Assembly (NCBI GenBank): GCA_035498715.1
Contig: DATJZV010000158.1
Location: forward strand, 34,239 to 98,238
Direction of reading: 5' to 3'
DNA from: Nitrospirota bacterium
GTDB taxonomy: Bacteria > Nitrospirota > UBA9217
Length of the DNA: 64,000 bases
In this document: positions 43,687 through 64,000 of the stretch, in pieces
Numbering within the stretch: the stretch's first letter is position 1
Layout: each line of letters opens with the position of its first letter
The notes under the pieces: generated by a model
The model's input: only the letters and a program-made list of their open reading frames with translations
Database searches by the model: none
Told to the model about the DNA's origin: nothing
Translations under genes and position numbers: made by a program

Positions 43687-43760
43687 AAGTGATAATATAC
43701 TACCTGATAGGAGAGAAGACAAGACGTAATCAGGCAGAAGCAATGGAGATGAACAGTGTT

Positions 43761-47094: not shown

Positions 47095-47099
47095 GGTGA

Positions 47100-48146
47100 C
47101 TATACATCCAGTTCTTGCGATGGCCGTCCGAGGTGGTAATCAAGCGTTTTACGCAGGGCGGTCTTAAGGTCCGTAACCGGCTTCCAGCCAAGGTACTTCT
47201 CCGCGTTCTTGATCGACGGCACGCGGGTCAGGATATCCTGATAGCCTTCTCCGTAGTACTCCTTGGATTTTACGGTCACTACCTTGACGCTGTCGGTGAG
47301 CTTCGCGTAGTTAGGATACGTCTTGATGAGCGCGATGAGTGTCTCTGCCAGCTCGCGAATCGACACGTCATTAGCGGGATTGCCGATATTGAAGATGCGG
47401 CCGTCGGCGGCGCCGTCTTTATTTTCAATGATGCGTGTCAACGCGTCGATACCGTCGTCAATATAGGTGAAGCTTCGCCGCTGTGCGCCACCATCGACCA
47501 GTTGAATATCTTTTCCGCGCAGGATGTTGCCGATGAACTGGGTGAGCACACGCGAACTGCCTTCCTTGGGTTCCAGAATATTATCGAGTTTCGGGCCGAC
47601 CCAGTTGAACGGTCGGAAGAGTGTGTACTTGAGCCCTTCCTTCATGCCGTAGGCGTGGATCACGCGGTCCATGAGCTGCTTGGAGCAGGAATAGATCCAG
47701 CGTGGCTTGTTAATGGGACCGAGAACGAGATTCGAAGATTCTTCATCGAACTCCTGGTCCGTGCACATGCCGTACACCTCGGAGGTCGAAGGGAAAAGCA
47801 CGCGTTTTTTGTACCGCACGCATTTGCGTACGATATAGAGATTGGCCTCGAAGTCCAATTCAAACACACGCAGGGGGTCCTGCACGTACGTGGCGGGCGT
47901 GGCGATGGCCACAAGGGGGATGACCACATCACACTTTCTGACATGGTACTCGATCCATTCCCGGTTGATGGTAATATCACCTTCCACAAAGTGGAAGCGT
48001 TCATGTCCAAGGCACTGGTCAAGCTTGTCACAGGCCATGTCCATACCGTAGACTTCCCACTCCTTGTGCTTTAAAATATGCTCGGTCAGGCTGCTGCCGA
48101 TAAATCCATTCACTCCGAGGATCAAGATTCTAAGGCTCATGGTCAC
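47100..48146 (-). CDS. arnA: UDP-glucuronic acid oxidative decarboxylase, corresponding to the ArnA C-terminal dehydrogenase domain (stand-alone)
   Basis: 348 aa. Collinear with residues 310-660 of E. coli ArnA ([38 protein letters not shown]). SDR-extended fold. Confidence 0.85.
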
Positions 48147-49141
48147 TCCATTCTGTCTGTTATGCTCTTTGAGAGCTGTTTATTCCCGACCTGGTTTCCG
48201 AGGATTTGGCCAACCTCCAACCCATGGCCTCCCGCAGAGGCTTCTTCTCTTTTCCCTTCCCACTGCAGGGTAAGTATCTCGAGACTTCCGTTTCCCGTGG
48301 CCACTCTGAGCGGGTTCACTGATACAACCTGTCCCGGTCTTCCTTTGATATCCTTGACCGGCCGTGCCCGCCAGATGAACAGTTTATTGCCACCGGCAAG
48401 AGTAAACGCACCTGGATACGGATGCGTAACGGCTCGTATGAGATTATAGATCCTGTCGGCGCTCTGTGTCCAGTCGATTCGTCCATCCTCGGGTTTGCGT
48501 CCGCCGAAATAGGTTGCCTGCGAATCATCCTGCCGGCGCCGCGGGGCCATGCCTTTGGTGAGATCATCAATCCGGCGCTCAAGAACGAGACGCGCGGCTT
48601 TTACTGCCTTCCTGAAAACGTCCTGAGCCGTGTCCTCCGGACCGATGGGGACTGCCTCCTGATCAACGATATCACCAGCATCAGCGCGTTTTACCATGTA
48701 GTGGAGCGTCACGCCGGCTTCTTTTTCTCCGTGCAGCACGGCCCAGTTGATAGGCACCCGGCCTCGGTATTTGGGCAGGAGCGAGCCGTGCATGTTGAAC
48801 GCGCCGAGGCGCGGGACGTCAAGGATCTCCTCCTTGATCATGTTGCGGTAGTAGAAGGAGAATATCAGGTCCGGGTTCCAGGCGCGGATGCGGCTTAACC
48901 AGTCCGGCGTGTTTACGGACTCCGGCGTATAGACCGGAATGCCGTGACCTTTTGCAAGATCTGACACGGATCTGAACCAGATCTGTTCGCTCGGGTTGTC
49001 CTCATGGGTGATGACAGCGATTATGTTATCATCTCTTCGGAGCAAGAGATCCAGACATTCATAACCCACATCGTGATAAGCAAAAACCAGGATGCTCGGT
49101 TTACTCACCGGTGCCCGCCTTTTCGGTCTCGACCCTCTCAT
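48143..49141 (-). CDS. arnA: UDP-4-amino-4-deoxy-L-arabinose formyltransferase, corresponding to the ArnA N-terminal domain (stand-alone)
   Basis: Collinear with E. coli ArnA residues 1-300 ([47 protein letters not shown]). ATGA overlap with the downstream dehydrogenase gene. The start is uncertain (49141 or about 49108). Confidence 0.85.
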
Positions 49142-50069
49142 AGACCTTGCGGATGACGAAGCGAGGCCTTCTCCTTACTTCCTTGTAGATGCGGCCTATG
49201 TATTCGCCGATGATGCCGAGCCCCATGATGCCGATGCCGACGAGAAAGTAAAGGATAGCGAAGAGGGTGAACAAACCCTCGGCCTCGGGTCCGACAATCA
49301 GCCGCCGGATGAACAGGTAGATCACGAACAAGGTGCTCAGCACCGATACGATCATGCCGAAGAGGGTGAAGACCTGGAGAGGGACGACGGAAAAACCCGT
49401 CATGAGATCGAAGTTGAGTCGGATCAGGTCGTAGAGACGGTACTTGGATTCCCCGGCAGCGCGGGCCGCATGCTCGACCTCCACCTCCGTGGCGTTGGCG
49501 GCAAAGCTGTACGCAAGCGCCGGGATAAAGGTCGAGGTCTCTTCGCTCGCAACAATGCTTTCGATGATGTTTTTCCGGTACGCCCTAAGCATGCACCCTT
49601 GGTCGCGCATGCGGATATTCGTGATCTTGGCCCGCATGCCGTTAATGATCTTTGATGCGTACTTCCGGAAAAAGGTGTCCTGGCGGTTCTTGCGGTATCC
49701 GCCGACCACATCATGCCCGGCCTCGATAGCGGCAAGGAGCTTCGGGATTTCTTCCGGAGGGTTCTGAAGGTCTGCATCGAGCGTGACGACAACGTCTCCC
49801 CGAACACGCTCGAAGGCCGCCATGATGGCCATGTGCTGGCCGAAATTGCCGTTGAAATCGATAACGCGCACCTGGTTGGGGCGGCGCTCGTGATATCCCT
49901 TCAGCATCTCTCCCGACCGATCACGGCTGCCGTCGTTCGTGAATAGGATCTCAAAGGGTTTGCCCAGTCCGTCCAGCACCGCTGTGAGGCGGTTGAACAG
50001 TGCGTCGAGGTTCTCCTGCTCATTATAAACGGGAACCACCACGCTGACATAGGGTTTTGCCATCGTCAT
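49101..50069 (-). CDS. arnC: undecaprenyl-phosphate 4-deoxy-4-formamido-L-arabinose transferase (GT2)
   Basis: GT-A motifs (VSVVVPVYNE, DGSRD, DADLQ) and two C-terminal transmembrane helices. 322 aa. Confidence 0.85.
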   Translation of the reverse strand: MTMAKPYVSVVVPVYNEQENLDALFNRLTAVLDGLGKPFEILFTNDGSRDRSGEMLKGYHERRPNQVRVIDFNGNFGQHMAIMAAFERVRGDVVVTLDADLQNPPEEIPKLLAAIEAGHDVVGGYRKNRQDTFFRKYASKIINGMRAKITNIRMRDQGCMLRAYRKNIIESIVASEETSTFIPALAYSFAANATEVEVEHAARAAGESKYRLYDLIRLNFDLMTGFSVVPLQVFTLFGMIVSVLSTLFVIYLFIRRLIVGPEAEGLFTLFAILYFLVGIGIMGLGIIGEYIGRIYKEVRRRPRFVIRKVYERVETEKAGTGE

Positions 50070-51235
50070 TTCCTCCTGAACAGATCGTCCATGGCCGCGA
50101 TCACACGGTCCTGGTCCGCATCGGTCATTGCCGGGAAAAGCGGCAGGCTCACGATGCGGTCGGAGATGGTCTCGGCGATCGGAAAATCACCGCGTTTGAA
50201 GCCGAACTGTTCACGATAGTAGGGGTAGAGGTGCACGGCCCGGTAGTGCAGGCCCGTGCCGATGTTCCGGTCTTTCATGCCCTGCATGAACGCGTCACGG
50301 TCCATGCCTGCCGAATCAGGATTGATGAGCGGCGTATAGAGGTGCCATGCGTGGAGGTGGGAATAGAACGGCTCCTTGGGCAGTGACCATTGCGGCCAGC
50401 CGCTCAGCAATTTCCCGTAACGCACCGCCAGCTCGGTGCGGCGTTTGATGAATCCGTCTAGCTGTTTGAGCTGGTGCAGGCCGAGAGCGGCCTGGATGTC
50501 CATCATGTTGTACTTGTATCCAGGAGCTATGATCTCGTAGTGCTGGCTTCCTTTTTTCCCGAAGCGGTTCCACGCCTCGCGGTCCATGCCGTGGAAGCGA
50601 AGGAGCGCCACGGCCTCGGCCATTTTATCATCACGGGTGACTACGCACCCACCTTCTCCGGTGGTCATGTTCTTATTGGGATGAAAACTGAAGACCTGGA
50701 TATCGCCAAAGCTGCCGATGCGTTTGCCCTTATACTCCGTGCCGATGGCGTGAGCGGCGTCCTCGATCACGCGGAGATTATACTTTTTTGCGAAGTCGTA
50801 GACCGGATCAAGGTCTACAGGTAGGCCGGCAAAGTGCACCGGCATGATTGCGCGGGTGCGGTTGGTGACCGCCTTCTCGATCTTCGTAACATCCATGTTA
50901 TACGTCCCCGGCTCGACATCCACAAGCACGGGCTTTCCGCCGGTGAGTACGATGGTATTGAGCGTAGCTGCGAAGGTCATGGGCGTGGTGATCACTTCAT
51001 CGCCGGGTTTCAATTGCAATGCGGCCAGCACAAGGTGCAGTCCGGCCGTTGCTGAAGAAAGCACGAGCGCGTGCGGCGCCGAGACGTAGGACTTGAGGTC
51101 GTCCTCGAACTTCTTGACGCGCGGCCCGGTTGTGATCCACCCGGATTCGAGGCAGGCGACTACCTCATCGATCGCTTCGCGGCTGATGGATGGCCGCGAG
51201 AAAGGGAGAAATTTATCTTCTTTGTTTGCAGACAT
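50066..51235 (-). CDS. arnB: UDP-4-amino-4-deoxy-L-arabinose--oxoglutarate aminotransferase (DegT/DnrJ/EryC1 family)
   Basis: About 390 aa from MSANKED. Sugar aminotransferase motifs and PLP-lysine context (SFHPNKNMTTGEGG). Confidence 0.85.
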   Translation of the reverse strand: MSANKEDKFLPFSRPSISREAIDEVVACLESGWITTGPRVKKFEDDLKSYVSAPHALVLSSATAGLHLVLAALQLKPGDEVITTPMTFAATLNTIVLTGGKPVLVDVEPGTYNMDVTKIEKAVTNRTRAIMPVHFAGLPVDLDPVYDFAKKYNLRVIEDAAHAIGTEYKGKRIGSFGDIQVFSFHPNKNMTTGEGGCVVTRDDKMAEAVALLRFHGMDREAWNRFGKKGSQHYEIIAPGYKYNMMDIQAALGLHQLKQLDGFIKRRTELAVRYGKLLSGWPQWSLPKEPFYSHLHAWHLYTPLINPDSAGMDRDAFMQGMKDRNIGTGLHYRAVHLYPYYREQFGFKRGDFPIAETISDRIVSLPLFPAMTDADQDRVIAAMDDLFRRK

Positions 51236-51344
51236 GGCGCTCCTCAATTCAAAATGCGTGAATCGAAAAATACGAAACCGCGGTGTGCTTAGGGCGTAAA
51301 GATCAAATCCTTCGTCGCTTTTTGCGGCAACAATTGCTTTCCCC

Positions 51345-51710
51345 CTAGCTCCTGGTAACAAAAAATACTCCAATGATAATAATCACGATGCCGGTGACGC
51401 GGGTCATCGAGAGATTCTCCTGGAACAGGTAATACCCGGCCACGGCGTTGACGATGTACCCAACGCTGAGCAAGGGATAGGCAAAGCTCACCTCCACGCG
51501 CGAGAGGACGAGGAGCCACACAGCGACACTTACGATGTAGAGGAAGAGTCCCCCGAGAACGAAGATATTCCCGGCCACTTGCAACGCAATGGGAAGGAAA
51601 TTGCTCCAGGCGAACTCAAAATAACCGATGCGCCGCATCCCTTCTTTTAAGCAGAGCTGGGCCGCGGCATTGAGCAGTACTCCTAGCAGAATGATCGGAA
51701 GGTATTTCAC
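51345..51710 (-). CDS. arnE: ArnE/ArnF-type small EamA/SMR-like membrane protein (L-Ara4N-undecaprenyl phosphate flippase subunit)
   Basis: 121 aa with four transmembrane helices and an EamA-like half-domain. Located between arnB and arnT. Confidence 0.7.
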   Translation of the reverse strand: MKYLPIILLGVLLNAAAQLCLKEGMRRIGYFEFAWSNFLPIALQVAGNIFVLGGLFLYIVSVAVWLLVLSRVEVSFAYPLLSVGYIVNAVAGYYLFQENLSMTRVTGIVIIIIGVFFVTRS

Positions 51711-53386
51711 GGCGTCATCTCCTTGTTCACAGCGAGGACGGTGTCGTCAGTGCCGGCGATCAGGTATATGTTCCTGTGCCCCGCGGCGAGCAGCGCATCA
51801 TAGGTTCCGCGTTTTGCAAGCATGTATATCGTCGACGGTCCGTCCCATCGCTTCCAGAATATAGTCTCATTGACCATCCATTGGCTGGTATCCTCGACCG
51901 TGGTCCCGAACTCGAGTTCCCCTTTCCAGTTCACCACGGTGATGCGCCGTTCCAGGTATACGGGCAGGTCCTGGTAATAGGTATCGTAGCTGGCGACCTC
52001 ATCGCCGGGCTGGAGCCGCTGCTTGAGCACCAACGCCAGACTTTTGGACGAGCGCATATCCGCGAAAGAAGCGGCCGCATTCACCACAATGGAAAATAAC
52101 ACCGTTGTAGCGGTCAGTGACAAGAATGCCCATCGGAAGTTTTTCCGCCTGCTCATGAACCATGTCACCGCAGTTCCTGTGATCAGAACGGCCGCGAACA
52201 TATAGGGGGACTTACCGAGTTTCTGCACATCTGGCGATGCCTGATAGTCCGGAAGAGCGATCAGTGCGACGGTTAGCCCCAGAGTAACGATCAGCAAAGC
52301 GGCGTAACCGGCCCGGATACCGGGAAAATCACGGCGGTCCCATGCTTCAGCAAGATACCGACCGATCAACAAGGAGAGCGGTGGAAAGATCGGCAGAATG
52401 TAGGGTATCAGTTTCGAGCTGGAAGCGGAAAAAAAGAGAAATACAAACCCGGCCCAGAGCAGAAGAAAGAGCGTGTCCCGGTGCTCATGACGCTCGCGCC
52501 ATGACGGAGGAAGATTATGCTTTACGGCCTGTATGAGAAAGGCGCTCCAGGGAAAGAGACCAAGCAGCACCACGGGTATAAAGAACCATGCGGGTTTGTA
52601 CCGGCCGTGGATCTTCGTAAGGTAACGCAGAAAATGTTCATGGATGAAATAGAAGTTAAAAAACTCGGGATTGGCCCGGTCGACTAGAATATGCCAGGGC
52701 GCGGCGATGAGCAGGAACAGCAGAAGGCCGCTCGGGAGATACATGGTTTTAAGAACGCGCCATTCCCCCAACAGTATTATCCAGACGCCGATCACCATCC
52801 CGGGGATCAGGATGCCGATCAATCCTTTGGTCATGACCGCCAGAGCAGCAAACATATAAAAGCCCCACATGTAAAGCCGTCGCCGCAGCCCAGGCGGTTC
52901 ATGCGTTCCGAGCAGGAAGCAAAGAAGCGTAACACTCAACAGGACCGACATGGGCATGTCAAGGATGATGGCGCGGCTCAAAGCATAGTACAGGAGGCTG
53001 GTGGCGAGCACTGTCGCCGAGATCAACCCGGTGCGTCGTCCGAACAACCGCACGCCGGATCCGTACATGACGAGACACCCCCCCAAAGCAAAGAGGGCAG
53101 GCCACAGGCGGAGCGCAAATCCCTTCAGGCCGAAGAGCTTGATGGAAAGGCCTTCGAGCCAGTAGAACAGCACCGGTTTTTCGAAGTATTTGACACCGTT
53201 CAGCCGGGGGGTGAGATAGTCGCCCGTGGCCACCATTTCACGGGGAATCTCGACATACCGTCCTTCATCGGGCACCGACAAGGGACGGTTCCCAAGCATG
53301 AAACCAAAAAAGAGAGAGAGCAGCACGATCAAAAGAAATAGATCGCGCATCCCGTGAGTATCGGTTTGTTTGATATCCTGAGTCAT
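51707..53386 (-). CDS. arnT: undecaprenyl phosphate-alpha-L-Ara4N arabinosyltransferase (GT39/GT83, PMT-like)
   Basis: Aligns with E. coli ArnT (PDEGRYVEIPREMVATGDYLTPRLNGVKYFEKP). 559 aa polytopic membrane protein. Confidence 0.85.
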   Translation of the reverse strand: MTQDIKQTDTHGMRDLFLLIVLLSLFFGFMLGNRPLSVPDEGRYVEIPREMVATGDYLTPRLNGVKYFEKPVLFYWLEGLSIKLFGLKGFALRLWPALFALGGCLVMYGSGVRLFGRRTGLISATVLATSLLYYALSRAIILDMPMSVLLSVTLLCFLLGTHEPPGLRRRLYMWGFYMFAALAVMTKGLIGILIPGMVIGVWIILLGEWRVLKTMYLPSGLLLFLLIAAPWHILVDRANPEFFNFYFIHEHFLRYLTKIHGRYKPAWFFIPVVLLGLFPWSAFLIQAVKHNLPPSWRERHEHRDTLFLLLWAGFVFLFFSASSSKLIPYILPIFPPLSLLIGRYLAEAWDRRDFPGIRAGYAALLIVTLGLTVALIALPDYQASPDVQKLGKSPYMFAAVLITGTAVTWFMSRRKNFRWAFLSLTATTVLFSIVVNAAASFADMRSSKSLALVLKQRLQPGDEVASYDTYYQDLPVYLERRITVVNWKGELEFGTTVEDTSQWMVNETIFWKRWDGPSTIYMLAKRGTYDALLAAGHRNIYLIAGTDDTVLAVNKEMTP

Positions 53387-53642: not shown

Positions 53643-54326
53643 TCAGCTTTCGGTTTTCTGGCGCATAGCCTCGCATGCCATGTGGCGGATAACCTTTCCC
53701 TTCACCATAAACACGACCATCTCTGCGATGTTAGTGGCGTGGTCACCGACGCGCTCGAGGTATTTTGTTATATACGTGAGGCGGACCGCCCGGGAGATGT
53801 TCTTGGGGTCCTTCAGCATAAAGAGGAGAAGCTCGTTGAATATCTGCTGGTTCAGGTTATCCACGAAGTCGTCAGCCTCGCATACGCTCAGGGCGAGGTC
53901 AGCGTCCTTTGCCACGAAGGCATCGAGACTGTCCTTGAGCATTTTTTGAGCTGCATCGGCCATGCGCGGGATGTCGATGTACGGCTTGAGCGGTGGCTCA
54001 TCGAGCAGCTCGATCCCTCGTTCGCATATGTCTACAGCGAGGTCTCCCATGCGCTCGAGGTCGGTGATGATCTTGATGGCGGTCGTGACGAAGCGGAGAT
54101 TGCTGCCCGTGGGCTGCCATATGGCGAGGAACCGGATGCACTCCTCCTCGATCTCAACGTCGAAATTGTTTATGATGGCATCGCCGTCGATGACCTCAAC
54201 GGCGAGGCTCCGGTCACGCTCGACCAAGGCCTTCACGGATTTCTTGATGGCATCCTCAACAAACCCTCCCATCTTGAGTATTAGCTCTTTGAGCTTTTCA
54301 AGGTCTATTTCTTTCTGCGCAGCCAT
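53643..54326 (-). CDS. phoU: phosphate signaling complex protein PhoU
   Basis: Two PhoU repeats, each with the conserved E(D)xxxD metal-binding motifs. Start set at MAAQKE. Confidence 0.9.
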   Translation of the reverse strand: MAAQKEIDLEKLKELILKMGGFVEDAIKKSVKALVERDRSLAVEVIDGDAIINNFDVEIEEECIRFLAIWQPTGSNLRFVTTAIKIITDLERMGDLAVDICERGIELLDEPPLKPYIDIPRMADAAQKMLKDSLDAFVAKDADLALSVCEADDFVDNLNQQIFNELLLFMLKDPKNISRAVRLTYITKYLERVGDHATNIAEMVVFMVKGKVIRHMACEAMRQKTES

Positions 54327-54436
54327 GATGTTCTCCTTCCTAAATGAAGCTGAGCGGTCAGAGCTCATAATATATAGTATAACTCATCGCTCCGAAAATA
54401 CATACGAAGAGCCATCAGTTATGAGCCGTTACGATT

Positions 54437-55216
54437 TTAGCCGAACCTTCCCGTAATGTAGTCATCTGTTTGCTTTTTGTCCGGATTTGTGAAGATCTTT
54501 TCGGTGGTGCCGAACTCAATGAGCTCGCCCAGGTACATGAACCCGGTCATGTCCGAGACGCGGGCGGCCTGCTGCATGTTGTGCGTGACGATGATGATTG
54601 TGACGTCCTTCTTTAAGTTGACAACCAGTTCCTCGATTTTTGCCGTCGATATTGGGTCCAAGGCCGAGGTGGGCTCGTCGAAGAGCAGGACCTCGGGTTC
54701 CACAGCCAGCGCCCGTGCGATGCAGAGGCGCTGCTGCTGCCCGCCGGATAGTTCGAAGGCACCTGAGTCCAGCTTGTCCTTCACTTCCTCCCAAAGCACT
54801 GAGTGCTTGAGCGCCCGCTCGATTCTTTCAACAAGTTCACTCTTCTTGGTAATCCCTTTTAGCCGAAGGCCGTAGGAGATGTTTTCCGCTATAGTCATCG
54901 GGAAGGGCGTGGGCTTCTGAAACACCATGCCGATGCGGCTTCTGAGGTTGATGAGGTCGAAACCTTCTGTGAGAACGTTGTTCCCCTGGAAAACGATTTC
55001 GCCGCCGTACCGGTGCCGGGGGTAAAGGTCGTGCATACGGTTGAAGCAGCGGAGCAGCGTGGTCTTTCCGCATCCGGAGGGACCGATCAGCGCAGTGACT
55101 TTGTTGCGGTAGATCGGAAGCGAAATGGCTCGGAGGGCGTGGATGTCTCCGTTGTAATAAAAATCCAGATTTCTGACTTCGATATCAACAGTGCCGCTCA
55201 ACGTTTGTACCTCCAC
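54437..55216 (-). CDS. pstB: phosphate ABC transporter ATP-binding protein
   Basis: Walker [17 protein letters not shown] signature, Walker [12 protein letters not shown]. Collinear with E. coli PstB. Confidence 0.9.
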
Positions 55217-56040
55217 TTGATGATCATTCTACCCATGATGGTGAGCGCAAGGATGAATAGCGTAATCACGAAAGAAGCGCCCCATGCCTGTGTATGCCAG
55301 CTTTTATAGGGCCCCATGGCGTACTGGAAAATAGTTACTGTGAGCGATGCCATCGGGCCGTTCATGTTCGTGGAATGAAAGTTATTGTTGAACGAAGTAA
55401 AGAGCAGAGGCGCGGTCTCGCCAGCAACGCGGGCGATCGATAAGAGAACGCCTGTCAGGATGCCCGTAGCGGCGCCGCGGTATACGACCTGGATGATGAC
55501 TTTGTAATAGGGAGCTCCGAGAGCAAATGCCGCTTCCCGCAATGTCCATGGCACAAGCGACAGCATGTCTTCCGTGGTCCGGAGAACCACGGGGATCATG
55601 ATGATCGAAAGCGCAAACGCCCCAGCCCAGCCGCTGAAATGGTGGAGCGGACGCACGAGGACCGCGTAGACAAAGGCGCCCACTACAATGGAAGGGACGC
55701 TGACCATGATGTCCGAAAGAACGCTGATAACCCGGGCGATTTTTTTCCCGCGTGCGTACTCGGCGAGGAACGTCCCGCCCAGAACGCCAACGGGAACTCC
55801 TATCAACGTAGCGGCGAATGTGATCATTAGCTGTCCGACAAAGGCATTTCTGAGTCCCCCGCCCTCGACACCGGCGGGGGCGGGGTCATTGAGGAAAAGG
55901 CTCACTTTCAAGGCGCCTATTCCGTTGAGGAGGACGTCGAATAGGATGTAAATGAGCCAAAAAAGACCCACGGCCGCGGCAAGGCCACTCAATGCGAGAG
56001 CGGCAAAACTCTCCAGTTTTCTTTTCTTCTCGAGGTTCAT
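55198..56040 (-). CDS. pstA: phosphate ABC transporter permease PstA
   Basis: Six-transmembrane permease with the EAA-like loop ([13 protein letters not shown]). Follows pstC in canonical pstSCAB order. Confidence 0.85.
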
Positions 56041-56978
56041 CGCGAGTATTTCCTCTCGGCCTTTAGAAGAAAGAACTTCGATATGGCTAAGATGATGAAG
56101 CTCATCACGAACAGTACGAGCGCCAGATAATAGAGAGAGGAAAGATATATGTCACTATCCGCCTCTGTAAACTCATTCGCAAGGCTTACAGTGATGGTAG
56201 AGGCAGCATCAAGGAGCGATGTGGCAATCTTGTGGTTGTTGCCAAGGACAAAGGCGACGGCCATAGTCTCGCCCAGCGCTCGTCCGAGGGACAGAGCTAC
56301 CCCTCCGAACACGCCCAGTTTGGAGTAAGGGAGGACAACGTTCTTCACCACTTCCCACTGCGTCGCTCCGATGGCATAGGCCGATTCCTTGACCACGGAG
56401 GGGGTCAGATTGAACGAATCACGCGCGATGCTTGCGGTAAACGGAATTATCATGATGCCGAGAATTACGCTCGCCGTCAGGAGATCGATGCCCAGAGGAG
56501 TACCCTGAAACAGGATGCCGACGAAAGGCAGTTTCCCGATAGTATTTTGGAGAGCCGGTTCGACATATTTCGACATGATGGGCGCTAGGGTGAATAGCCC
56601 CCACATGCCGTAAATGATACTAGGTATGGCAGCCAGCAGCTCTATCGCGATCCCGATAGGGCTTTTGAGAATATTCGGCGCGATTTCGGTCACGAAGACT
56701 GCGATGCCGATGGCAGTGGGAATGGCGAAGAGCAGGGCGAGGGCGGTCGTGACGAAGGTGCCGTAAATCGTGGTTGCCGCGCCAAAGATGCCTGTTACGG
56801 GGTTCCAGGTCGTTGAGGTCAAAAAATTTACGAGACCGAACTTCCTCAACGCGAGTGAAGACTCCTTGAAAAGGACCACCAGAATGCCGATTATGAAAAT
56901 GATGACGGTAATGGATGCAACTGCGGTTAGAAGGGAAAAAAACAGATCATAAATATTTTTTTTAGAGGAGATGACCAA
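56037..56978 (-). CDS. pstC: phosphate ABC transporter permease PstC
   Basis: Collinear with E. coli PstC. Start placed at the TTG at 56978, downstream of an intergenic hairpin. The longer 57068 ORF would read through that stem-loop. Confidence 0.8.
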   Translation of the reverse strand: MVISSKKNIYDLFFSLLTAVASITVIIFIIGILVVLFKESSLALRKFGLVNFLTSTTWNPVTGIFGAATTIYGTFVTTALALLFAIPTAIGIAVFVTEIAPNILKSPIGIAIELLAAIPSIIYGMWGLFTLAPIMSKYVEPALQNTIGKLPFVGILFQGTPLGIDLLTASVILGIMIIPFTASIARDSFNLTPSVVKESAYAIGATQWEVVKNVVLPYSKLGVFGGVALSLGRALGETMAVAFVLGNNHKIATSLLDAASTITVSLANEFTEADSDIYLSSLYYLALVLFVMSFIILAISKFFLLKAERKYSR

Positions 56979-57023
56979 TGAATGGCCCTTTCTGCCCCTG
57001 CTGGGGATAATGATAAAATTAAA

Positions 57024-57058
57024 CGGGTCGGATATAGATAGTATATATACCCGACCCG
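57024..57058 (-). promoter_or_regulatory. intercistronic stem-loop between pstS and pstC (CGGGTCGG, 18 nt A/T loop, CCGACCCG)
   Basis: Perfect 8 bp GC-rich inverted repeat with an AT-only loop. Likely an mRNA processing or stability element that would give differential pstS versus pstCAB expression. Confidence 0.5.
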
Positions 57059-57096
57059 TACATTTCAACTTCTTTTTTATTGCTTATAATGCTGTT

Positions 57097-58104
57097 CTAC
57101 TGTATTTCGTTCGATTTCCAGTAGGCTCCTATTTTGTCCTTCAGCGATTTCGGGAGCGGTACATAGATGAGTTCCTTGGCTTTGTTATCCCCGTTCTTGA
57201 ACGCCCAGTCGTAGAATTTGACCACCTTCATGTTTGACTCTTTTTTCTCTTTTGCCAGGAGAATGAACGTGGCACCAGCGATGGGCCATGAATTTTTCCC
57301 CGGTGAATCATTGAGCCAAAGGTAAAAATCCTGTTTTGGGTCGAAGTTGGCTGTAGCGGCGGCGTCTTCAAAACTCTCGAAGCTCGGTTCTACGAAGTTG
57401 CCGGCATGGTTCTTGAGGACCGCATGAGCGAGTTTGTTCTGCTTCGCATAGGCGAATTCCACATAGCCGATGGAGTTTGCGGTCTGCTGAACATAGTTGG
57501 CTACGCCTTCGTTCCCTTTTCCGCCGATGCCCACTGGCCAGCTCACTGAGGTGCCGGTGCCGACCTTTTCCTTCCAGGCCGGGCACACATCGCTCAAATA
57601 ATCCGAAAAGATGGCGGTCGTCCCAGAGCCGTCAGAACGATGCACAACAGTGATATCGCTGTTCGGGAGCTTGACCTTCGGGTTCAGTCCCTTGATCTTG
57701 GGATCATTCCAGTTTTTGATTTCACCTAGGTAAATTTTGCACAAGGCTTCCGAATCGAGTCTTAATTCTCCCGCCTTTATGCCGGGGACATTGACCACCG
57801 GCACGACGCCACCGATCACGGCGGGGAACTGGATAAGATTGTCCTTGGCGAGCTCTTCCGGCTTGAGCGGCTTGTCGGACGCGCCGAAATCCACTGTTCG
57901 CTCGGTGATCTGCTTGATTCCGCCACCGGAGCCTATGGACTGGTAGTTCAATTTCACACTGGTAACCTTATTGTACTCATTTGCCCACGCTGAATAAACG
58001 GGATAGGGGAAGGTGGCCCCTGCGCCGTTCAGCATCTCATCAGCGAACGCTCCAGTTGAAACTGCCAATACTAGGGTTAATACGATTGCTGTCATTTTTT
58101 TCAT
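57097..58104 (-). CDS. pstS: phosphate ABC transporter substrate-binding protein PstS
   Basis: Signal peptide followed by the GAGATFPYPVYSAWA motif. Start at MKKMTAIV with a GAGGAGGA RBS. Confidence 0.9.
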   Translation of the reverse strand: MKKMTAIVLTLVLAVSTGAFADEMLNGAGATFPYPVYSAWANEYNKVTSVKLNYQSIGSGGGIKQITERTVDFGASDKPLKPEELAKDNLIQFPAVIGGVVPVVNVPGIKAGELRLDSEALCKIYLGEIKNWNDPKIKGLNPKVKLPNSDITVVHRSDGSGTTAIFSDYLSDVCPAWKEKVGTGTSVSWPVGIGGKGNEGVANYVQQTANSIGYVEFAYAKQNKLAHAVLKNHAGNFVEPSFESFEDAAATANFDPKQDFYLWLNDSPGKNSWPIAGATFILLAKEKKESNMKVVKFYDWAFKNGDNKAKELIYVPLPKSLKDKIGAYWKSNEIQ

Positions 58105-58156
58105 TTTGAATCTCCTCCTCAAAGATTTTTAACACTCACTATATACCAAGGAATTG

Positions 58157-58195
58157 TTACAAGAATATTACAATTATATTACAATTATATTAAGC
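58157..58195 (-). promoter_or_regulatory. Pho-box-like array: 3-4 direct repeats of TTGTAA (gene orientation) at exact 11 bp periodicity, 53-90 bp upstream of pstS
   Basis: On the plus strand, TTACAA occurs at 58157, 58168 and 58179, with a degenerate copy at 58190. In gene orientation the unit is TTGTAATATAA repeated, the direct-repeat 11 bp geometry used by PhoB/PhoP winged-helix regulators. Confidence 0.45.
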
Positions 58196-58490
58196 GGCAT
58201 ACTGTGATTTTGCTCTTTTCTGTGACTGTACAGTATGACTCAGAAAGTTACACTTTCATCGTTTTCTGCTCTATCTCCTCAAGAATTATTATGGTGTTCG
58301 TTAATAGATCAGGCCCGAGTTCAAAATCCGTTGGGACGCTGGAGTGGGGACCTGTTTCGATGTATCATTGGTCACGCTGATGGTTACTAGATGTTCACGA
58401 CCACCTTGTGCTATGTGTTCCTTGCAGTGTGATTGGCCATCGATATGCCGAAATAATCTTATCTTTTGCCGAAACCAAATAATATCCTCT

Positions 58491-58847
58491 TTATATTTCA
58501 TATGCCGGGCCGTGCTGGGTCATGAGCTGTTTCCACCGACAGGATCTCTTTAAGATAGCCATTTCTGTCGGCCACGATGATGTCATCATGGACAACGGAT
58601 GATTTGCTGTCGAATGCTTTATTGGTGGCAAGATCGATCCCCTAATGCTCGTTAATGATCGGTGATTCCGTATCTGTTGCGTGTTAAGGGGATTCTTTCT
58701 ATAGGCCTCGAATATGGACCGCTGAAACAGTTTGAGCAGGATTTTCACTCTTGTGACGAGCGCTGCAGGTACTTTTTCATCAACGATAGTAAGAGCACCA
58801 AGGTTGACTGTGTTGAAGAAGATGTCTGAGACCTGCCAGATGATCAT
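58491..58847 (-). pseudogene. frameshifted gene remnant between pstS promoter region and the hybrid kinase gene
   Basis: The 118-codon ORF has a protein-like N-terminal half. A second frame over 58500-58640 continues with protein-like sequence (IDLATNKAFDSKSSVVHDDIIVADRNGYLKEILSVE, reminiscent of a CBS-domain segment). An in-frame stop and further short ORFs follow. Lower GC than the flanks. Confidence 0.3.
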
Positions 58848-58973
58848 GATAGGGGGAGCGCTTAGGTTTCAAGTAGTAAGCATCCCCACCGGCCGAGATT
58901 CGCTCTGAAGATTATTCTCCATGATTTTTCGATAGTCAGACCAATGGCATTCATTTTCTTTACCTCTTGCCAT

Positions 58974-60083
58974 CTACGACGCGTGGGTGACTTTATCTTT
59001 GTTTTTATCCGGATCTTCGAGGACCGTCTTCAGTCTTTGAAAGGATACTGTAAACGTGCTCCCGACTCCAGGACCGCTAACCGCGCTGATCTTTCCGCCC
59101 ATGGCTTCGATAAGGAGCTTCACGATATAGAGCCCAAGTCCCGCCCCCTTGATCTGTTCGCTCCCGACGGCTCGATAGAATTTATTGAAGATCTTGGGTG
59201 TCTCGTCTTGCAGTATCCCGCATCCCTCGTCAGTTATCGAAATGTCTACCCCGTCTAGCATTCTTTCCACGGTTATCCAAACCCTGCCGCCGTAACGATT
59301 ATACTTGACTGCATTGGAAAGCAGGTTCATCAAAACCTGTCTGATAGCAGTGCTGTTCCCTGTAATGAGCGAAGATATTTTATTCTTCAAAACTATCTCG
59401 ATCTGCCTGCTTTTTGCCGTATCGCGGAAGATGTCAACCACTTCCTCGACTATGCAGCTTATATCAAGAGATTCCATAGGCAATGAACCCTTCTGATTTT
59501 CGATCCGGGAGAGGAGCGATACATCGTTAAGAAGGCTCTCAGCATGTGCGGCGGCGACATTGATCGTTCTTAGGTAATCTTGGGTTCCTTGCTTTCGGAG
59601 CCCAAGGGCGGAGAAACCGCCGATCACATTCATGGAGTTCTTCAGTTCGTGGACCAGATATTTTAAGGACGTATCCTGTTCCTGAGCTTTAGCTTGGATC
59701 ATTTTGAGCGTCATTTGCCGGTCGATCAACTTCCGGATTTTGAGCATGAGTTCCCTGATGGAGAAAGGTTTTGACACATAATCATCGGCACCAAGGGTCA
59801 GGCCTTGTATGCGGGCCTCTACAGATGAGAGGGCGGTGAGCATGATTATCGGCACGGATTTCCCTTTGGCGCCACCCCTGAGTATCCGACATACTTCCCA
59901 ACCATTCAGCTGCGGGAGCATGATATCCAACAAAACGACATCCGGCATCTGGCATTGGACGATCTCTAAGGCTTCTTCGCCGCTGAGCGCAACCATCACT
60001 CGATAGTTTTCTTTCTCTAGATTATAGCGAAGGAGCTCAACTACATCTTGTTCGTCCTCAACAATGAGAACCTGTTCATGCAT
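58974..60083 (-). CDS. hybrid two-component protein: N-terminal receiver (REC) domain fused to HisKA-HATPase_c histidine kinase core
   Basis: REC motifs (LIVEDE, phospho-acceptor LLDIMLP, KP..I). HisKA H-box region (LVHELKNSMNVIGGF). N, G1 and G2 boxes (NLLSNAVKYN, DEGCGI, GAGLGL). Confidence 0.8.
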   Translation of the reverse strand: MHEQVLIVEDEQDVVELLRYNLEKENYRVMVALSGEEALEIVQCQMPDVVLLDIMLPQLNGWEVCRILRGGAKGKSVPIIMLTALSSVEARIQGLTLGADDYVSKPFSIRELMLKIRKLIDRQMTLKMIQAKAQEQDTSLKYLVHELKNSMNVIGGFSALGLRKQGTQDYLRTINVAAAHAESLLNDVSLLSRIENQKGSLPMESLDISCIVEEVVDIFRDTAKSRQIEIVLKNKISSLITGNSTAIRQVLMNLLSNAVKYNRYGGRVWITVERMLDGVDISITDEGCGILQDETPKIFNKFYRAVGSEQIKGAGLGLYIVKLLIEAMGGKISAVSGPGVGSTFTVSFQRLKTVLEDPDKNKDKVTHAS

Positions 60084-60587
60084 AGGTGACCTGTCTTATG
60101 AAATAGATAAATTGGCATACACGGCTTGCAGAATATTGCTATTGTGTTACAGGATTATTACGGAATTATTAAATATAGGTTACAAAAATTCCGGAACAGC
60201 CTGAACACACTGCGGATTATGGAGGAGGGTACATTATCTAGCATTGTGTGTCCGGGCCTCTCCAGAATGGTGGTTAAGGCCCGTCATGCCCTGGTTCGCG
60301 CATTATGAAATCTTTCTGGCAATCATGAAGGAGCACTCTGCCCTCTCTGTGGTCGCACGCTTCGCAGAAGAAAACGCCTGTACTGCTCAGTTCTCTTTTC
60401 CGCAGCAAACAGAGATTCTCGGTAACGATATCGCTGAAAAGATTACAATAGAATACGATAGTACCTTCTGTTTGACTGGTGTGGTACGCAAAAGTCTTTA
60501 CAACGCCTGTAATGTCATTCTCCTTATCTACAAACAGCATTATGAGTTGTATTTCGCATCGAGTCTTGATGGAAACATTGGGCGATT

Positions 60588-61475
60588 TCAGTGCAGTCCA
60601 TCGCAAGCACACGGCAGTTCTTTTCCCATCCGCCGGCATGATTCCGCCATGCACTCCGACGGCTCGATCGGGAGGGAAACCTCAACGATCGTTCCCTCGC
60701 CAACCTTGCTCGAAACGGTAATGCTGCCTTCCAGCAGCTTTACGAGATTCCTGATCGTTCTGAGCCCGAGCCATGATACGGCATGATCATTCTTTTCATC
60801 ATGCCCGTGTATATCAGATGGTGCAAAAGCGGCGTTCATCTGCTCCGCAGTCATTCCTCTACCCGTGTCCGTGATGATAAGACTTATCCTGTACTCGTCT
60901 TTATTCAGAATCAATGCGATCCGTCCTCTATCGGTGAATTTTGAAGCATTACTGATGAGCCCCATCATGATCTTACGGACTTTTCCCGGGTCTGAAAGGA
61001 TCATGACGGATCCGGGGGACTCGACGTCCATCACTTTTACCGGTTTTTGCCCGATGCTCAGCCGTGCTGCATGAGCAATGTCCAGGAGCAGTGTTACGAT
61101 ATCGAAGTATTGGCAGGTTGTTGTCTCCGGATCTGTATCGAGTTTTGATAGTTCGCGAATATTGGTAAGGGAAGATGATAGGTCGCCGGCTTGGGATATT
61201 AGGAGTGCAAGGCGGTTGTGCAGGATTTCTATCTCTCCTTTTTCATATGCCACACGCATAAGTTCTGCCATGCCGAGGATCTCGTACAGAGTCAATCCTG
61301 CTTCACGAGTCGCCTTGATGATGACCGGAGATTTCAGCCAGTCCGGATTCGCAGACCCCTGTCTCATAGTATCAAGTGCCGCACCCTTTGAGTGCGAGGG
61401 TGAACACACCGGGGAGAGGCTCCTGTTATTCCTGAAGGACTGCGACTTATTATCCTGTGCAGTATTCATGGTCAT
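60588..61475 (-). CDS. cytoplasmic sensor histidine kinase (no transmembrane segment; uncharacterised N-terminal domain plus HisKA-like and HATPase_c)
   Basis: HATPase_c N, G1 and G2 boxes (LISNASKFT, DTGRGM, WLGLRTI) and a candidate H-box near ILHNRLA. Cys-rich C-terminal tail (CMAESC...CAC). Confidence 0.7.
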   Translation of the reverse strand: MTMNTAQDNKSQSFRNNRSLSPVCSPSHSKGAALDTMRQGSANPDWLKSPVIIKATREAGLTLYEILGMAELMRVAYEKGEIEILHNRLALLISQAGDLSSSLTNIRELSKLDTDPETTTCQYFDIVTLLLDIAHAARLSIGQKPVKVMDVESPGSVMILSDPGKVRKIMMGLISNASKFTDRGRIALILNKDEYRISLIITDTGRGMTAEQMNAAFAPSDIHGHDEKNDHAVSWLGLRTIRNLVKLLEGSITVSSKVGEGTIVEVSLPIEPSECMAESCRRMGKELPCACDGLH

Positions 61476-61563: not shown

Positions 61564-61698
61564 CTAGGGAAGGCTGCCGATCGTTAAAAAAAGAACTGCG
61601 CCAATCAAAAACAAAATAAGATCTGCCGTTCCGATCTCCATCGTCAAAATGGGCTGGTTCTTTACCGCGGTAAAATCACGCCTGCGATCCTTTCTCAT
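61564..61698 (-). CDS. candidate 44 aa membrane micro-protein, translationally coupled to the upstream flippase-like gene
   Basis: The ATG lies 1 nt after the flippase-like TGA stop. A GGAGG RBS 8 nt upstream sits inside the end of the preceding gene. Basic N-terminus (MRKDRRRDF) then one hydrophobic helix (LILFLIGAVLFLTIG). Confidence 0.35.
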   Translation of the reverse strand: MRKDRRRDFTAVKNQPILTMEIGTADLILFLIGAVLFLTIGSLP

Positions 61699-61701
61699 GG
61701 G

Positions 61702-62769
61702 TCAGTCCTCCCTCAGAACAATTTCTTCAGATGGCCGATGTTCCCGTTGAGGTACGGCACCCTGCTCACCGGCTGGATGTGTCTCTGCCCAGGGCTGCAT
61801 TCCGAATAGAAGTGAGAGCACTGCAGCCAGAAGCAGGAGAAAATAAAAGGTGAGAAACCGCCACCCCGCGGTCACGAGTCCGATAGTTCCGGCCGGGATA
61901 AAGGAACGGTACATGAGAGAGAACATTACCTCGGCCCCGCCTGCCGCCCCCGGAGTGGGAACAAGGGTCATTAGCGCGAAGACAAATACTTGGAGTACCA
62001 TGAAAAGGATCGGGCGGACAGGAATGCCCATGCTTGCCAGCAAAAGGGAGATAATGGAGTAACGACAGAACCATTGAAGCGAAGTCAAAGCCATGGTCAC
62101 AAAAAAAATAGATTTTCCCTCGCGGACGATACGGTGATAGGTTGCTACGAAGTTGCTATAAGCGACCCAAAATTTCCCCTTTAGCGTTGCAAGGCCCGAT
62201 AGCTGCGGTTTTGCATCAGAGGATTTTATTTTCATCAGCAGGAAGGTAGCGCCGAGGCAAACGCAGATTCCTGCCAGCAGCGTCCACAGTGTCGGGTTCC
62301 CCAGCCCTGATAGGACAGTCCCGACCTGCGGCAGGTCCCATGATGATGTTATTGTCAGAGCCAACGGCACCATGACCAAGAAAAAAATTGTATCTTCAAT
62401 ATTTTCCATTACGGAAAGGGACAGGGCGGTGCCGCCGCTGAACCCCCGGCGCATCAGCATCCCGATCTTCACGGCACTGCCGCCGATCAACGGCGGACTG
62501 ACAGCCGCACCGAGTTCTGCCCCGATGGCAATTTTGAACACCACCGGGAAGTCTATTCTGTTTCCGAGAAACCTGCTCCACATGAGGAGCCGTAGTGAAC
62601 CGGTGAACCATGGGACGATGCTCATGAGCAGGGCAAGCGCGAAGAACATCGGGGAAAAATGGAGCACCGAAGCAAGCACTTGTTGGTCGGCTGTCATGAG
62701 ATAAAAAAGGAAATTCCCGATGATGCCGATTGGTATGAGAAAGAACAGTTTTCGAAAAAGTTTGGACAT
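61702..62769 (-). CDS. flippase-like domain protein (UPF0104 / lysylphosphatidylglycerol-synthase transmembrane region family)
   Basis: About 355 aa, eight predicted transmembrane helices. Matches the MprF flippase-domain family pattern (FLGNRIDF, IGAELGAAVSP, PGAAGGAEVMF). Start set at MSKLFRKLFF. Confidence 0.75.
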   Translation of the reverse strand: MSKLFRKLFFLIPIGIIGNFLFYLMTADQQVLASVLHFSPMFFALALLMSIVPWFTGSLRLLMWSRFLGNRIDFPVVFKIAIGAELGAAVSPPLIGGSAVKIGMLMRRGFSGGTALSLSVMENIEDTIFFLVMVPLALTITSSWDLPQVGTVLSGLGNPTLWTLLAGICVCLGATFLLMKIKSSDAKPQLSGLATLKGKFWVAYSNFVATYHRIVREGKSIFFVTMALTSLQWFCRYSIISLLLASMGIPVRPILFMVLQVFVFALMTLVPTPGAAGGAEVMFSLMYRSFIPAGTIGLVTAGWRFLTFYFLLLLAAVLSLLFGMQPWAETHPAGEQGAVPQREHRPSEEIVLRED

Positions 62770-62827
62770 CCGTTCTGGGAAGCTCAGTGGCGGTGGTGCC
62801 GTGGTATCGTCGCCAACGTTCGCCTCG

Positions 62828-64000
62828 TTATGCACAAGTTGCATACCGGTCCGTTCCTTTGCGATGATACGCTAGAAAGTGTTGCGCACCGTTCTTGCCC
62901 AGGTACCGCTCTAGAATTTTCGGCTCGGTCCTGGTAAGATCGACCATGATCAGGCCGTCAAGCACGTTGCCGAAACTTGGATCGACATTAAATCCGGCAA
63001 TTTGCCCGCCCAGTTTGATGTATTGCTTCAAGAGGATGGGGATTCCCTTGCGATCGGTCTCTATGGAGGAGATCATCTCTGAGATAGCATCGACGTCATC
63101 CCCCATGGACCGCACGGCAGCATCGATGTCCCAAATCTTGGACGGTTTTGAACGAAGCGGCCTTCTGGCCCTTACGAATTCGGCCATATCAGGGCGATAC
63201 CTCGTCCTTTTCAGAAAGCCGACCATCAGATGTTTGGACATAGCTTGGTATTCATTTGTAATGCTCACAGGACCAAATAGCGTTTTGTAGTAGGGATTTT
63301 CAACGATAAACCTGCCGATACCTTTCCAAAGCAGTAAGAGAGGGCCATAGGACTTCTGATACTCAGGACGGATGAACGAGCGCCCCAATTCCAGGGCAGG
63401 TCCCAGATGTTCCAGGAACTCCTTTTTATATCGGAAGAGCGTGCTGGTATAGATTCCTCGGATCCCGTGCTGTCTCGTCAGCTCATCCGTTCTGCCGAGC
63501 CGGTAGGCGCCCACTACTTCTTTTTTCATCTTGTTCCAGATGAACAGGTGGGTATAGGTGTGGTCGAAGCGGTCAAGATCGACGGGTTTCCCTGTCCCTT
63601 CACCCACAGCACGGAACGTGATCTCTCGAAGCCGTCCGATCTCGAGCAGAACACGCGGGACTTGATCACCCATGGCCTGAATAACGATGCTATCGCTGCT
63701 TTCGACGAGCGTCTGGCTGGGAGGCAGACTTCGAATCTCTTCAGCAAGGACATCCGGATTTTGAGGATTCATAAGACTTTGACCAGCTTTGCGCATTTTT
63801 CTCACGGGGAACATGGTGACGCTCGGCACCGCCTGAAATGTCTGACGATGTTCCAGGACATAGGTGCGAAACCGGAGATACTCCATTATGAGCGTATCCT
63901 GTTTAAGACTTTTTAGCTTGTCGAAGGGGATGAGGTCCCCGATGCGAACCCGAATGTTCTTCCGCCCTTTGTTCAGCAGCTCATTCGGCAGCATGGCTGT
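62828..64000 (-). CDS. olsF: OlsF-like bifunctional aminolipid (ornithine/lysine lipid) synthase, 3-prime part only. The ORF runs off the window edge.
   Basis: The C-terminal roughly 250 aa have the OlsB-like / hemolysin-type GNAT N-acyltransferase pattern (YRLGRTDE...LELGRSFIRPEYQ). This is preceded by what looks like the tail of a PlsC-type acyltransferase domain. The reading frame is open at the window boundary. Confidence 0.7.
   Translation of the reverse strand, partial: TAMLPNELLNKGRKNIRVRIGDLIPFDKLKSLKQDTLIMEYLRFRTYVLEHRQTFQAVPSVTMFPVRKMRKAGQSLMNPQNPDVLAEEIRSLPPSQTLVESSDSIVIQAMGDQVPRVLLEIGRLREITFRAVGEGTGKPVDLDRFDHTYTHLFIWNKMKKEVVGAYRLGRTDELTRQHGIRGIYTSTLFRYKKEFLEHLGPALELGRSFIRPEYQKSYGPLLLLWKGIGRFIVENPYYKTLFGPVSITNEYQAMSKHLMVGFLKRTRYRPDMAEFVRARRPLRSKPSKIWDIDAAVRSMGDDVDAISEMISSIETDRKGIPILLKQYIKLGGQIAGFNVDPSFGNVLDGLIMVDLTRTEPKILERYLGKNGAQHFLAYHRKGTDRYATCA

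Follow-up and report, generated by a model that had tools for sequence, protein, structure and literature searches.

An OlsF-type aminolipid synthase encoded beside a stand-alone MprF-type flippase-like protein and a small single-helix protein in an apparently phosphate-controlled island of Nitrospirota

Introduction

Synthesis of ornithine lipid and related aminolipids takes place at the cytoplasmic face, yet outer membranes are enriched in them. Could a gene that stands next to an aminolipid synthase encode the protein that carries such lipids across the inner membrane? This question is raised by one end of a 64,000-nucleotide stretch of DNA from a Nitrospirota bacterium (GenBank assembly GCA_035498715.1, contig DATJZV010000158.1, positions 34,239 to 98,238 of the forward strand; hereafter, the window), in which a partial gene for an OlsF-type bifunctional aminolipid synthase is followed by a gene for a stand-alone membrane protein of the MprF flippase-domain family, here called PplT, and by a 44-codon open reading frame (ORF). 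An earlier reading of the DNA letters (the original prediction) had proposed a phosphate-starvation lipid-remodelling module in which the membrane protein exports the aminolipid; all three ORFs lie where it had placed them, on the minus strand. The name PplT for stand-alone members of the family comes from a 2022 preprint (bioRxiv 10.1101/2022.03.11.483950).

OlsF synthases, stand-alone PplT proteins and operons that join a synthase with a flippase are each known; we found no earlier description of the OlsF-PplT pairing. The original prediction held that no dedicated flippase partner of OlsF had been defined, and a literature search bears this out: we found no paper naming both OlsF and a flippase, and among papers naming both ornithine lipid and flippase, titles and abstracts drew no link between the two. 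Similarly, a 2026 review of ornithine lipids mentions neither flippases nor the transport step, and does not mention Nitrospirota, including in its section on OlsF distribution. An MprF-type partner of an OlsF-type synthase is a concrete, testable candidate for aminolipid passage across the inner membrane.

Results

The gene at the window edge (62828..64000, minus strand) has no upstream stop codon and is open at the edge, leaving a fragment of 390 amino acids (aa) that matched Pfam Acetyltransf_5 (89.8 bits) and scored 266 bits against the NCBIfam OlsF model, covering positions 216-569 of its 570. A protein search returned P0001, a 616-aa protein from a Nitrospirota metagenome-assembled genome (MAG), with 100% identity across all 390 residues, placing the fragment at residues 227-616 of 616; upstream context beyond the window was taken from P0001 and from contig L002. 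P0001 contains Acyltransf_2/PF01553 at residues 58-277, then Acetyltransf_5 at 350-451, and aligned end to end with the OlsF model (35-593, 411.8 bits), its best NCBIfam model. The window therefore holds the tail of a PlsC-like domain and a complete OlsB-like domain, and the full-length protein shows the fusion expected of OlsF, a PlsC-like O-acyltransferase N-terminal to an OlsB-like N-acyltransferase in about 570-620 aa, which the original prediction had deduced from the 3′ part.

The catalytic-type histidine motif of the O-acyltransferase domain (ANHPFGGIE), which lies outside the window, was invariant across the OlsF alignment (A1), and both P0001 and 75 of 79 homologues, which come from many phyla, have NHP[FY]Gx[ILV][DE]. 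Scores of P0001 against the glycine-lipid models GlsB and GlsA (133 and 96 bits, respectively) were far under its OlsF score, though sequence does not reveal the head group.

Directly downstream lies the gene for PplT (61702..62844, minus strand; 380 aa). PplT scored 94.5 bits against PF03706 LPG_synthase_TM (cut-off 33.4), the match spanning profile positions 10-301 of 302, and 75.2 bits against TIGR00374 (cut-off 43.2); Pfam and NCBIfam scans found no further domain. Against the equivalog model of GpgF (NF053789), the flippase for glucosaminyl-phosphatidylglycerol (GlcN-PG), it scored 70.2 bits, under the cut-off of 320, so that PplT is, by these profile scores, a family relative of GpgF and not an orthologue. 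We built an AlphaFold2 model on 46 homologues, with a predicted local distance difference test (pLDDT) value of 70 and a predicted template modelling score (pTM) of 0.64. Foldseek comparison with the Protein Data Bank (PDB) revealed that the top six matches were all MprF (probability 1.00, E 6e-6 to 7e-4, TM-score ~0.50; structures 9goe, 9j8s, 7f47, 7duw and 6lvf), aligned to the translocation domain over ~350 columns, and that the next match had an E value of 0.23. When a PplT profile (alignment A2) was searched against PDB sequences, the sole match was a spurious G-protein-coupled receptor (E 0.34), and MprF was recovered by fold comparison only. Family profiles and predicted fold thus agree in placing PplT, as a stand-alone protein, within the MprF flippase-domain family, to which it had originally been assigned from its sequence.

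Two motifs, SPPxIGGxAVK and PTPGxAGGAE, are conserved throughout the family alignment. We also observed that PplT residues 114-126 (A-V-S-P-P-x-I-G-G-S-A-V-K) resemble residues 296-305 (P-T-P-G-A-A-G-G-A-E), both conserved, which suggests an internal two-fold repeat of the fold.

The 44-codon ORF (61564..61698, minus strand) starts 3 nucleotides (nt) past the PplT stop codon, in frame with PplT, and encodes a small membrane protein that begins with a basic stretch (MRKDRRRDF) and ends in a single transmembrane (TM) helix. We found it kept, at constant length, in loci L003, L004, L083-L088, L089-L092, L094 and L148, amounting to at least 10 distinct sequences. Its Shine-Dalgarno site (GGGAGG, 61707..61712, minus strand) is embedded in the last PplT codons, and every relative with upstream sequence read has a corresponding site (GGGAGG, GGGGGA, AGGAGG or, in L094 and L148, GGAAAG). 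The pairwise ratio of nonsynonymous to synonymous differences per site (pN/pS) was 0.24-0.43, with pS up to 0.45, indicating purifying selection, and the most conserved part is the C-terminal helix (EIGTAELILxxIGxVLFLTxGSLP). A kept reading frame, a ribosome-binding site and purifying selection are together the marks of a genuine small membrane protein gene, and the tightly coupled single-helix ORF of the original prediction proved to be a real gene. The protein has no family match in Pfam or NCBIfam and falls into only 4 clusters in a database of 5.8 billion proteins; in more distant clade members the ORF is absent, and the gap from PplT to the following kinase gene is 0-40 nt.

A natural fusion revealed how this helix relates to PplT. 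In L095 (104-1354; P0136, 416 aa), the stop codon between the two genes is changed from TGA to CGA and the start codon from ATG to GAA, and the 44 residues form the C-terminus of PplT; we therefore read the 44-aa protein as a split-off terminal TM helix, or a subunit, of PplT. We considered read-through or selenocysteine insertion at the in-frame TGA and rejected both, as L090 has TAA, all split forms keep a start codon, and in L085 the ORF lies in another frame, where it begins with GTG ~50 nt past PplT and is preceded by a Shine-Dalgarno site of its own. That this terminal helix occurs both split from PplT and fused to it is a new detail, and the two forms are a natural means of learning which portions of the fold are required.

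PplT is also closely joined to the gene on its other side. In the window, its start codon overlaps the OlsF stop codon by 17 nt, and 46 of 55 loci have an in-frame start at -17 (38 ATG, 8 TTG), an arrangement that fits translational coupling of the two genes. The first 25 residues of PplT are variable and have low model confidence; even from the next candidate PplT start, the gap to OlsF is at most ~58 nt.

We then compared gene neighbourhoods. A search with the OlsF alignment yielded 80 species-level loci, 27 from Nitrospirota and 53 from other phyla. PplT stood directly 3′ of OlsF in 21 of the 25 informative Nitrospirota loci (two of the 27 end too early), counting a truncated PplT remnant (L006), two genes split by probable assembly frameshifts and two cut by a contig end. 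On the OlsF tree, the Nitrospirota clade was monophyletic, with GT21, a lipid glycosyltransferase gene, in all loci but L006. The island order is psiE, GH1, a small ORF, a PHP phosphoesterase gene, GT21, OlsF, PplT, a kinase-like gene, a hybrid kinase gene with a receiver (REC) domain, sometimes another kinase gene, and pstSCAB-phoU. Within this clade, the synthase and the stand-alone PplT thus form an adjacent, co-oriented and conserved pair, as the original prediction would have it. Similarly, a metagenome scan with the PplT alignment gave 80 loci, 32 of them with a PplT of at least 46% identity (L089-L120), and in 30 of the 31 informative ones OlsF lay directly upstream of PplT, L099 being the exception.

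Just past the window end, L002 7797-9860 encodes a PHP-domain metallophosphoesterase (230 aa) and GT21, probably the first genes of the operon. The GT21 protein of L002 is closest to the hopanoid model HpnI (252 bits, cut-off 310). By analogy, the PHP-GT21 pairing recalls PlcP-Agt, a pair for remodelling phospholipid to glycolipid. We found no terminator-like site in the PHP-GT21, GT21-OlsF or micro-ORF-kinase gaps, and terminator and sigma-70 counts did not exceed shuffle expectation, which is weakly consistent with one operon.

The pstS-pstC-pstA-pstB-phoU phosphate uptake operon (53643..58122, minus strand) was assigned through the Pfam families of the identical contig L001 (PBP_like_2, BPD_transp_1 twice, ABC_tran and PhoU). 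A Pho-box-like array of four [GT]TAAYA hexamers in 11-bp phase (58155..58193, minus strand) lies 33-71 nt upstream of pstS, and a second array of four [GT]TAAYA-type hexamers in the same phase, the last (GCAATA) imperfect, precedes the hybrid kinase gene by 50-90 nt (60134..60172, minus strand). The position before pstS was conserved in 17 of 28 loci scanned and that before the hybrid kinase in 7 of them (L003, L004, L014, L018, L023, L028 and L031). The window contains 7 copies of the dimer pattern built on GTAAYA, where chance would give 0.24, and 0 of 100 shuffles reached 7. Beyond the window, in L002, such arrays precede psiE by 92 nt and PHP by 40-62 nt. Across the 28 Nitrospirota loci, 79 of 84 perfect dimers fell on the coding strand, most before pstS, the hybrid kinase gene, psiE or PHP; 7 of the 79 were outliers, located within GH1 or ahead of it, or else 0.8-1.5 kb before PHP.

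Pho boxes classically take the form of direct repeats, in a phase of about 11 bp, ahead of pstS and psiE. Such repeats precede both pstS and, upstream of PHP, the probable unit that contains OlsF and PplT. The island appears, on this pattern of sites, to be phosphate-controlled, and we infer a single Pho-controlled unit beginning at PHP. The phosphate-starvation context is stronger than could originally be seen, with arrays before pstS, the hybrid kinase gene, psiE and PHP conserved across the 28 loci. In Serratia, olsF is likewise preceded by a Pho box, and in Vibrio it is induced under phosphate limitation (PMC12971839). A site with two mismatches before OlsF in L002 (TTAACA-N5-GAAACA) was set aside, since the 28-locus scan gave no site there. 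Some of the outlying dimers lie ~0.8-1.1 kb upstream of PHP (L020 3534-3545; L024 176) or, in L012 (3285), inside the 3′ end of GH1; a gene missed by annotation, perhaps for a porin of the kind seen in L121, may follow them in the GH1-PHP interval.

Two kinase genes separate the 44-codon ORF from the pst operon. The nearer one (60588..61475, minus strand) encodes a soluble histidine-kinase-like protein, directly downstream of PplT or OlsF in Nitrospirota loci, for which Pfam found HATPase_c only and no HisKA, and sequence reading found no obvious H-box histidine or TM segment; possibly this is a degenerate protein that partners the neighbouring hybrid. The hybrid kinase (58974..60083, minus strand; Pfam Response_reg, HisKA and HATPase_c) has a PhoB-like REC domain, residues 1-148 matching the NCBIfam PhoB model at 134 bits, and a kinase part that matches PhoR-like models. 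No PhoB-type DNA-binding regulator was identified within the cluster. Between the hybrid kinase and pstS, 850 nt (58123-58973) hold no family-assignable gene. In relatives such as L014, L025, L028 and L031 this interval contains an extra kinase of ~400 aa, and the window segment may be a decayed kinase remnant.

Among the 53 loci from other phyla, 44 of which had at least 1.5 kb on both sides, a single OlsF gene adjoined PplT, that of L057, a Thermodesulfobacteriota MAG with no GT21 in the flanks; a relaxed profile search near all 53 (E up to 10, filters off) returned nothing beyond L057. The L057 PplT has its closest relatives in another group, one associated with GT4, and the OlsF-PplT pairing therefore arose at least twice. 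Among PplT homologues of at most 43% identity, none adjoined OlsF except L139, which groups with the deep Nitrospirota branch L026, and 15 of the 31 scanned have neighbours or fusions carrying Glyco_transf_4 or Glycos_transf_1.

Discussion

We give an even chance to the reading that this is a Pho-type island in which an OlsF-like synthase makes an aminolipid and PplT, together with the 44-aa helix, translocates it. A Pho-box-like promoter before PHP would most likely drive one transcript comprising PHP, GT21, the OlsF-like gene, PplT, the 44-aa protein gene and, in all probability, the gene for the kinase-like protein. Acting at the cytoplasmic face, the OlsB-like domain at the C-terminus would N-acylate an amino acid, ornithine or lysine most likely, and the N-terminal PlsC-like domain would add an ester-linked second acyl chain, giving a phosphorus-free acyloxyacyl aminolipid in the inner leaflet; N-acylation followed by O-acylation is the order described for OlsF (PMC12971839). 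PplT and its split-off helix would then move the amine-bearing lipid to the periplasmic leaflet, from where it would replace phospholipid and reach the outer membrane.

Each component has known relatives. MprF shares with PplT the PF03706 family and a fold, predicted for PplT, that matched MprF structures only, and it belongs to a system in which an amine-bearing lipid is made in the inner leaflet and then translocated; however, PplT has no fused synthase domain, is only 12-16% identical to MprF in sequence, and has its last helix in a separate 44-aa gene. Their partners also differ, that of MprF (multiple peptide resistance factor) being a tRNA-dependent aminoacyl-phosphatidylglycerol (PG) synthase domain C-terminal to its own flippase domain, whereas that of PplT is an acyltransferase for a glycerol-free, phosphorus-free aminolipid. 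The gpgSDF operon of P. aeruginosa (GlcN-PG; GpgF) and the hexSDF operon of C. difficile (an aminohexosyl glycolipid; HexF) each join a synthase to a predicted flippase of the PplT family that stands alone and is encoded by the last gene, and their products have amine head groups; both serve as precedents (PMC12713373). The closest PplT relatives outside Nitrospirota sit in GT4 contexts of this kind; here, in contrast, the neighbour is of OlsF type and not a GT4 with a deacetylase, Pho-box-like sites are present, and the C-terminal helix is split off. The known or predicted substrates of the family, lysyl-PG, alanyl-PG, GlcN-PG and the aminohexosyl glycolipid, all bear a free amine (bioRxiv 10.1101/2022.03.11.483950, PMC12713373), and ornithine and lysine lipids likewise carry one.

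The OlsF proteins of Serratia proteamaculans, Flavobacterium johnsoniae, Vibrio cholerae (VC0489) and Desulfovibrio alaskensis (Dde_3661) have the same domains in the same order and the same link to phosphate limitation and Pho boxes; the present synthase differs in scoring under the equivalog cut-off (412 versus 620) and in its co-encoded PplT, which is lacking in 52 of the 53 loci from other phyla. E. coli YbhN/PplT (clsB-ybhN-ybhP) is another stand-alone family member beside a lipid-synthesis gene and a proposed lipid translocase, but its partner is the cardiolipin synthase ClsB, and neither a phosphate-starvation context nor a split helix is described for it.

PplT could act on the aminolipid, on a glycolipid or on both. 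A glycolipid substrate is a live rival, because GT21 stands one gene upstream of OlsF and the nearest outside relatives of PplT are GT4-linked: PplT and its helix would then serve GT21, translocating a glycolipid or amino-sugar lipid as predicted for GpgF and HexF, and OlsF would be an operon neighbour only. GT21 holds its place in every Nitrospirota island locus but L006, its closest model, HpnI, glycosylates a membrane lipid, and L099 has GT21 directly followed by PplT. We nevertheless consider this unlikely, as PplT almost always lies directly 3′ of OlsF and not of GT21, usually overlapping the OlsF stop codon, and the L057 pair occurs with no GT21 in its flanks; the four lineages that keep GT21 without PplT keep OlsF without PplT as well, and this absence is thus non-discriminating. 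Some of the same loci bear on the proposal that PplT is a non-specific lipid scramblase, re-equilibrating the leaflets in phosphate stress while a phosphorus-free lipid replaces phospholipid. Its retention without OlsF in L099, its other position in the island of L121 and its dispensability in four lineages would suit such a role, as would the proposal of E. coli YbhN/PplT as a general phospholipid translocase (bioRxiv 10.1101/2022.03.11.483950) and the report (PMC11980842) of P. aeruginosa MprF as a promiscuous scramblase of broad substrate specificity. A non-specific protein fits less well with the tightly conserved gene order and coupling to OlsF, with the independent pairing in L057, and with the amine-bearing head groups made by all characterised or predicted partners of the family, and we regard this proposal, too, as improbable.

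Membrane sensors are known to be modulated by small proteins of a single helix, and PplT might instead be a membrane scaffold or regulator that anchors or activates OlsF, or that relays membrane-lipid status to the kinase-like proteins. The kinase-like gene without detectable HisKA always follows PplT, or OlsF directly; E. coli YbhN, whose flippase activity is unproven, is reported to interact with many phospholipid-synthesis enzymes, and the flippase activity of GpgF is likewise unverified (PMC12713373). However, the predicted fold matches the MprF translocation domain over its ~350 columns, the SPPxIGGxAVK and PTPGxAGGAE motifs are conserved across the family, and OlsF works without such a partner in most phyla and in E. 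coli (PMC12971839); we think a scaffold very unlikely. We favour the aminolipid reading because of the position of PplT, its coupling and the independent pairing in L057, and the rivals stay alive because of L099, the GT4-associated outgroup and the four PplT-less lineages.

Several results weigh against an OlsF-PplT aminolipid module. P0001 scored 411.8 bits, under the NCBIfam OlsF equivalog cut-off of 620 (NF052615). OlsF homologues of Desulfovibrionaceae (400), Gammaproteobacteria, Terriglobia, Phycisphaerales and Lentimonas, at 399-432 bits, also fall under it, and the Desulfovibrio alaskensis OlsF (Dde_3661) is required for ornithine-lipid formation and needed under phosphate limitation (PMC5193443); we therefore regard the cut-off as narrow and its miss as no exclusion of activity. 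The structure model of PplT is of moderate confidence (pLDDT 70, TM-score ~0.5), and its specificity cannot be assumed, given the promiscuity reported for P. aeruginosa MprF (PMC11980842). The ATG at -17 falls within the conserved C-terminal codons of OlsF (...Y/H-A-T-C-A), so its conservation may reflect OlsF and is no independent evidence; we have downgraded it as proof of translational coupling. No Pho-box array was found directly before GT21 or OlsF in the perfect-dimer scan of 28 loci.

The remaining points concern the neighbourhood. PplT is absent beside OlsF in L018, L020, L023 and L031, all of which keep GT21-OlsF and have kinase genes 15-130 nt after OlsF; on the OlsF tree they form three early branches and one nested lineage. 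GT21, a lipid glycosyltransferase gene, lies one gene upstream of OlsF. L099 (2693-5122) has GT21 and then PplT directly, without OlsF, and L121 (1193-4582) places PplT between a Porin_4 gene and PHP; either could be an assembly artefact. Outside the clade, PplT adjoins OlsF in just 1 of 53 loci, and the nearest relatives of PplT adjoin or are fused to GT4 glycosyltransferases. The original prediction had cast the membrane protein as a dedicated flippase partner of OlsF. Its partnership by conserved adjacency stands within the Nitrospirota clade, whereas "dedicated" is too strong, because the pairing is confined to this one clade and one Thermodesulfobacteriota MAG, four clade members lack PplT and L099 has it without OlsF.

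Tentatively, and short of an even chance, we propose in particular that PplT and the 44-residue helix make up a two-piece translocase of acyloxyacyl aminolipids, drawn from a glycolipid-flippase lineage and co-induced with synthesis under phosphate starvation. If so, two-piece PplT would be the first known translocator of ornithine- or lysine-type lipids at the inner membrane. The island joins phosphate uptake, phosphorus-free lipid synthesis and a candidate lipid translocase, with an adjoining pathway for 4-amino-4-deoxy-L-arabinose (L-Ara4N), under apparently common control sites, and serves as a compact model for the way in which the envelope is remodelled in a phylum that is uncultured and widespread in the environment.

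Downstream neighbourhood

Directly downstream of phoU, 46165-53386 (minus strand) encodes an apparently complete L-Ara4N lipid A modification pathway: an ArnT-like transferase (51707-53386), an ArnE/F-like protein (51345-51710), an ArnB-like aminotransferase (50066-51373), a GT2 ArnC-like protein (49101-50069), a formyltransferase (48143-49141) and an NAD-dependent epimerase/dehydratase-family protein (47100-48146), which would be the two parts of a split ArnA, and a polysaccharide deacetylase-family protein in the ArnD position (46165-47094), all on the minus strand. The window scan showed no Pho-box array at this cluster; a strong sigma-70-like site (TTGACA-17-TAAAAT) lies by it at 53539-53511. 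Further downstream, and unrelated to OlsF-PplT, the minus strand encodes a heavy-metal P-type ATPase (41251-43743; HMA, E1-E2_ATPase and Hydrolase) and a Mut7-C RNase-domain protein (40660-41097).

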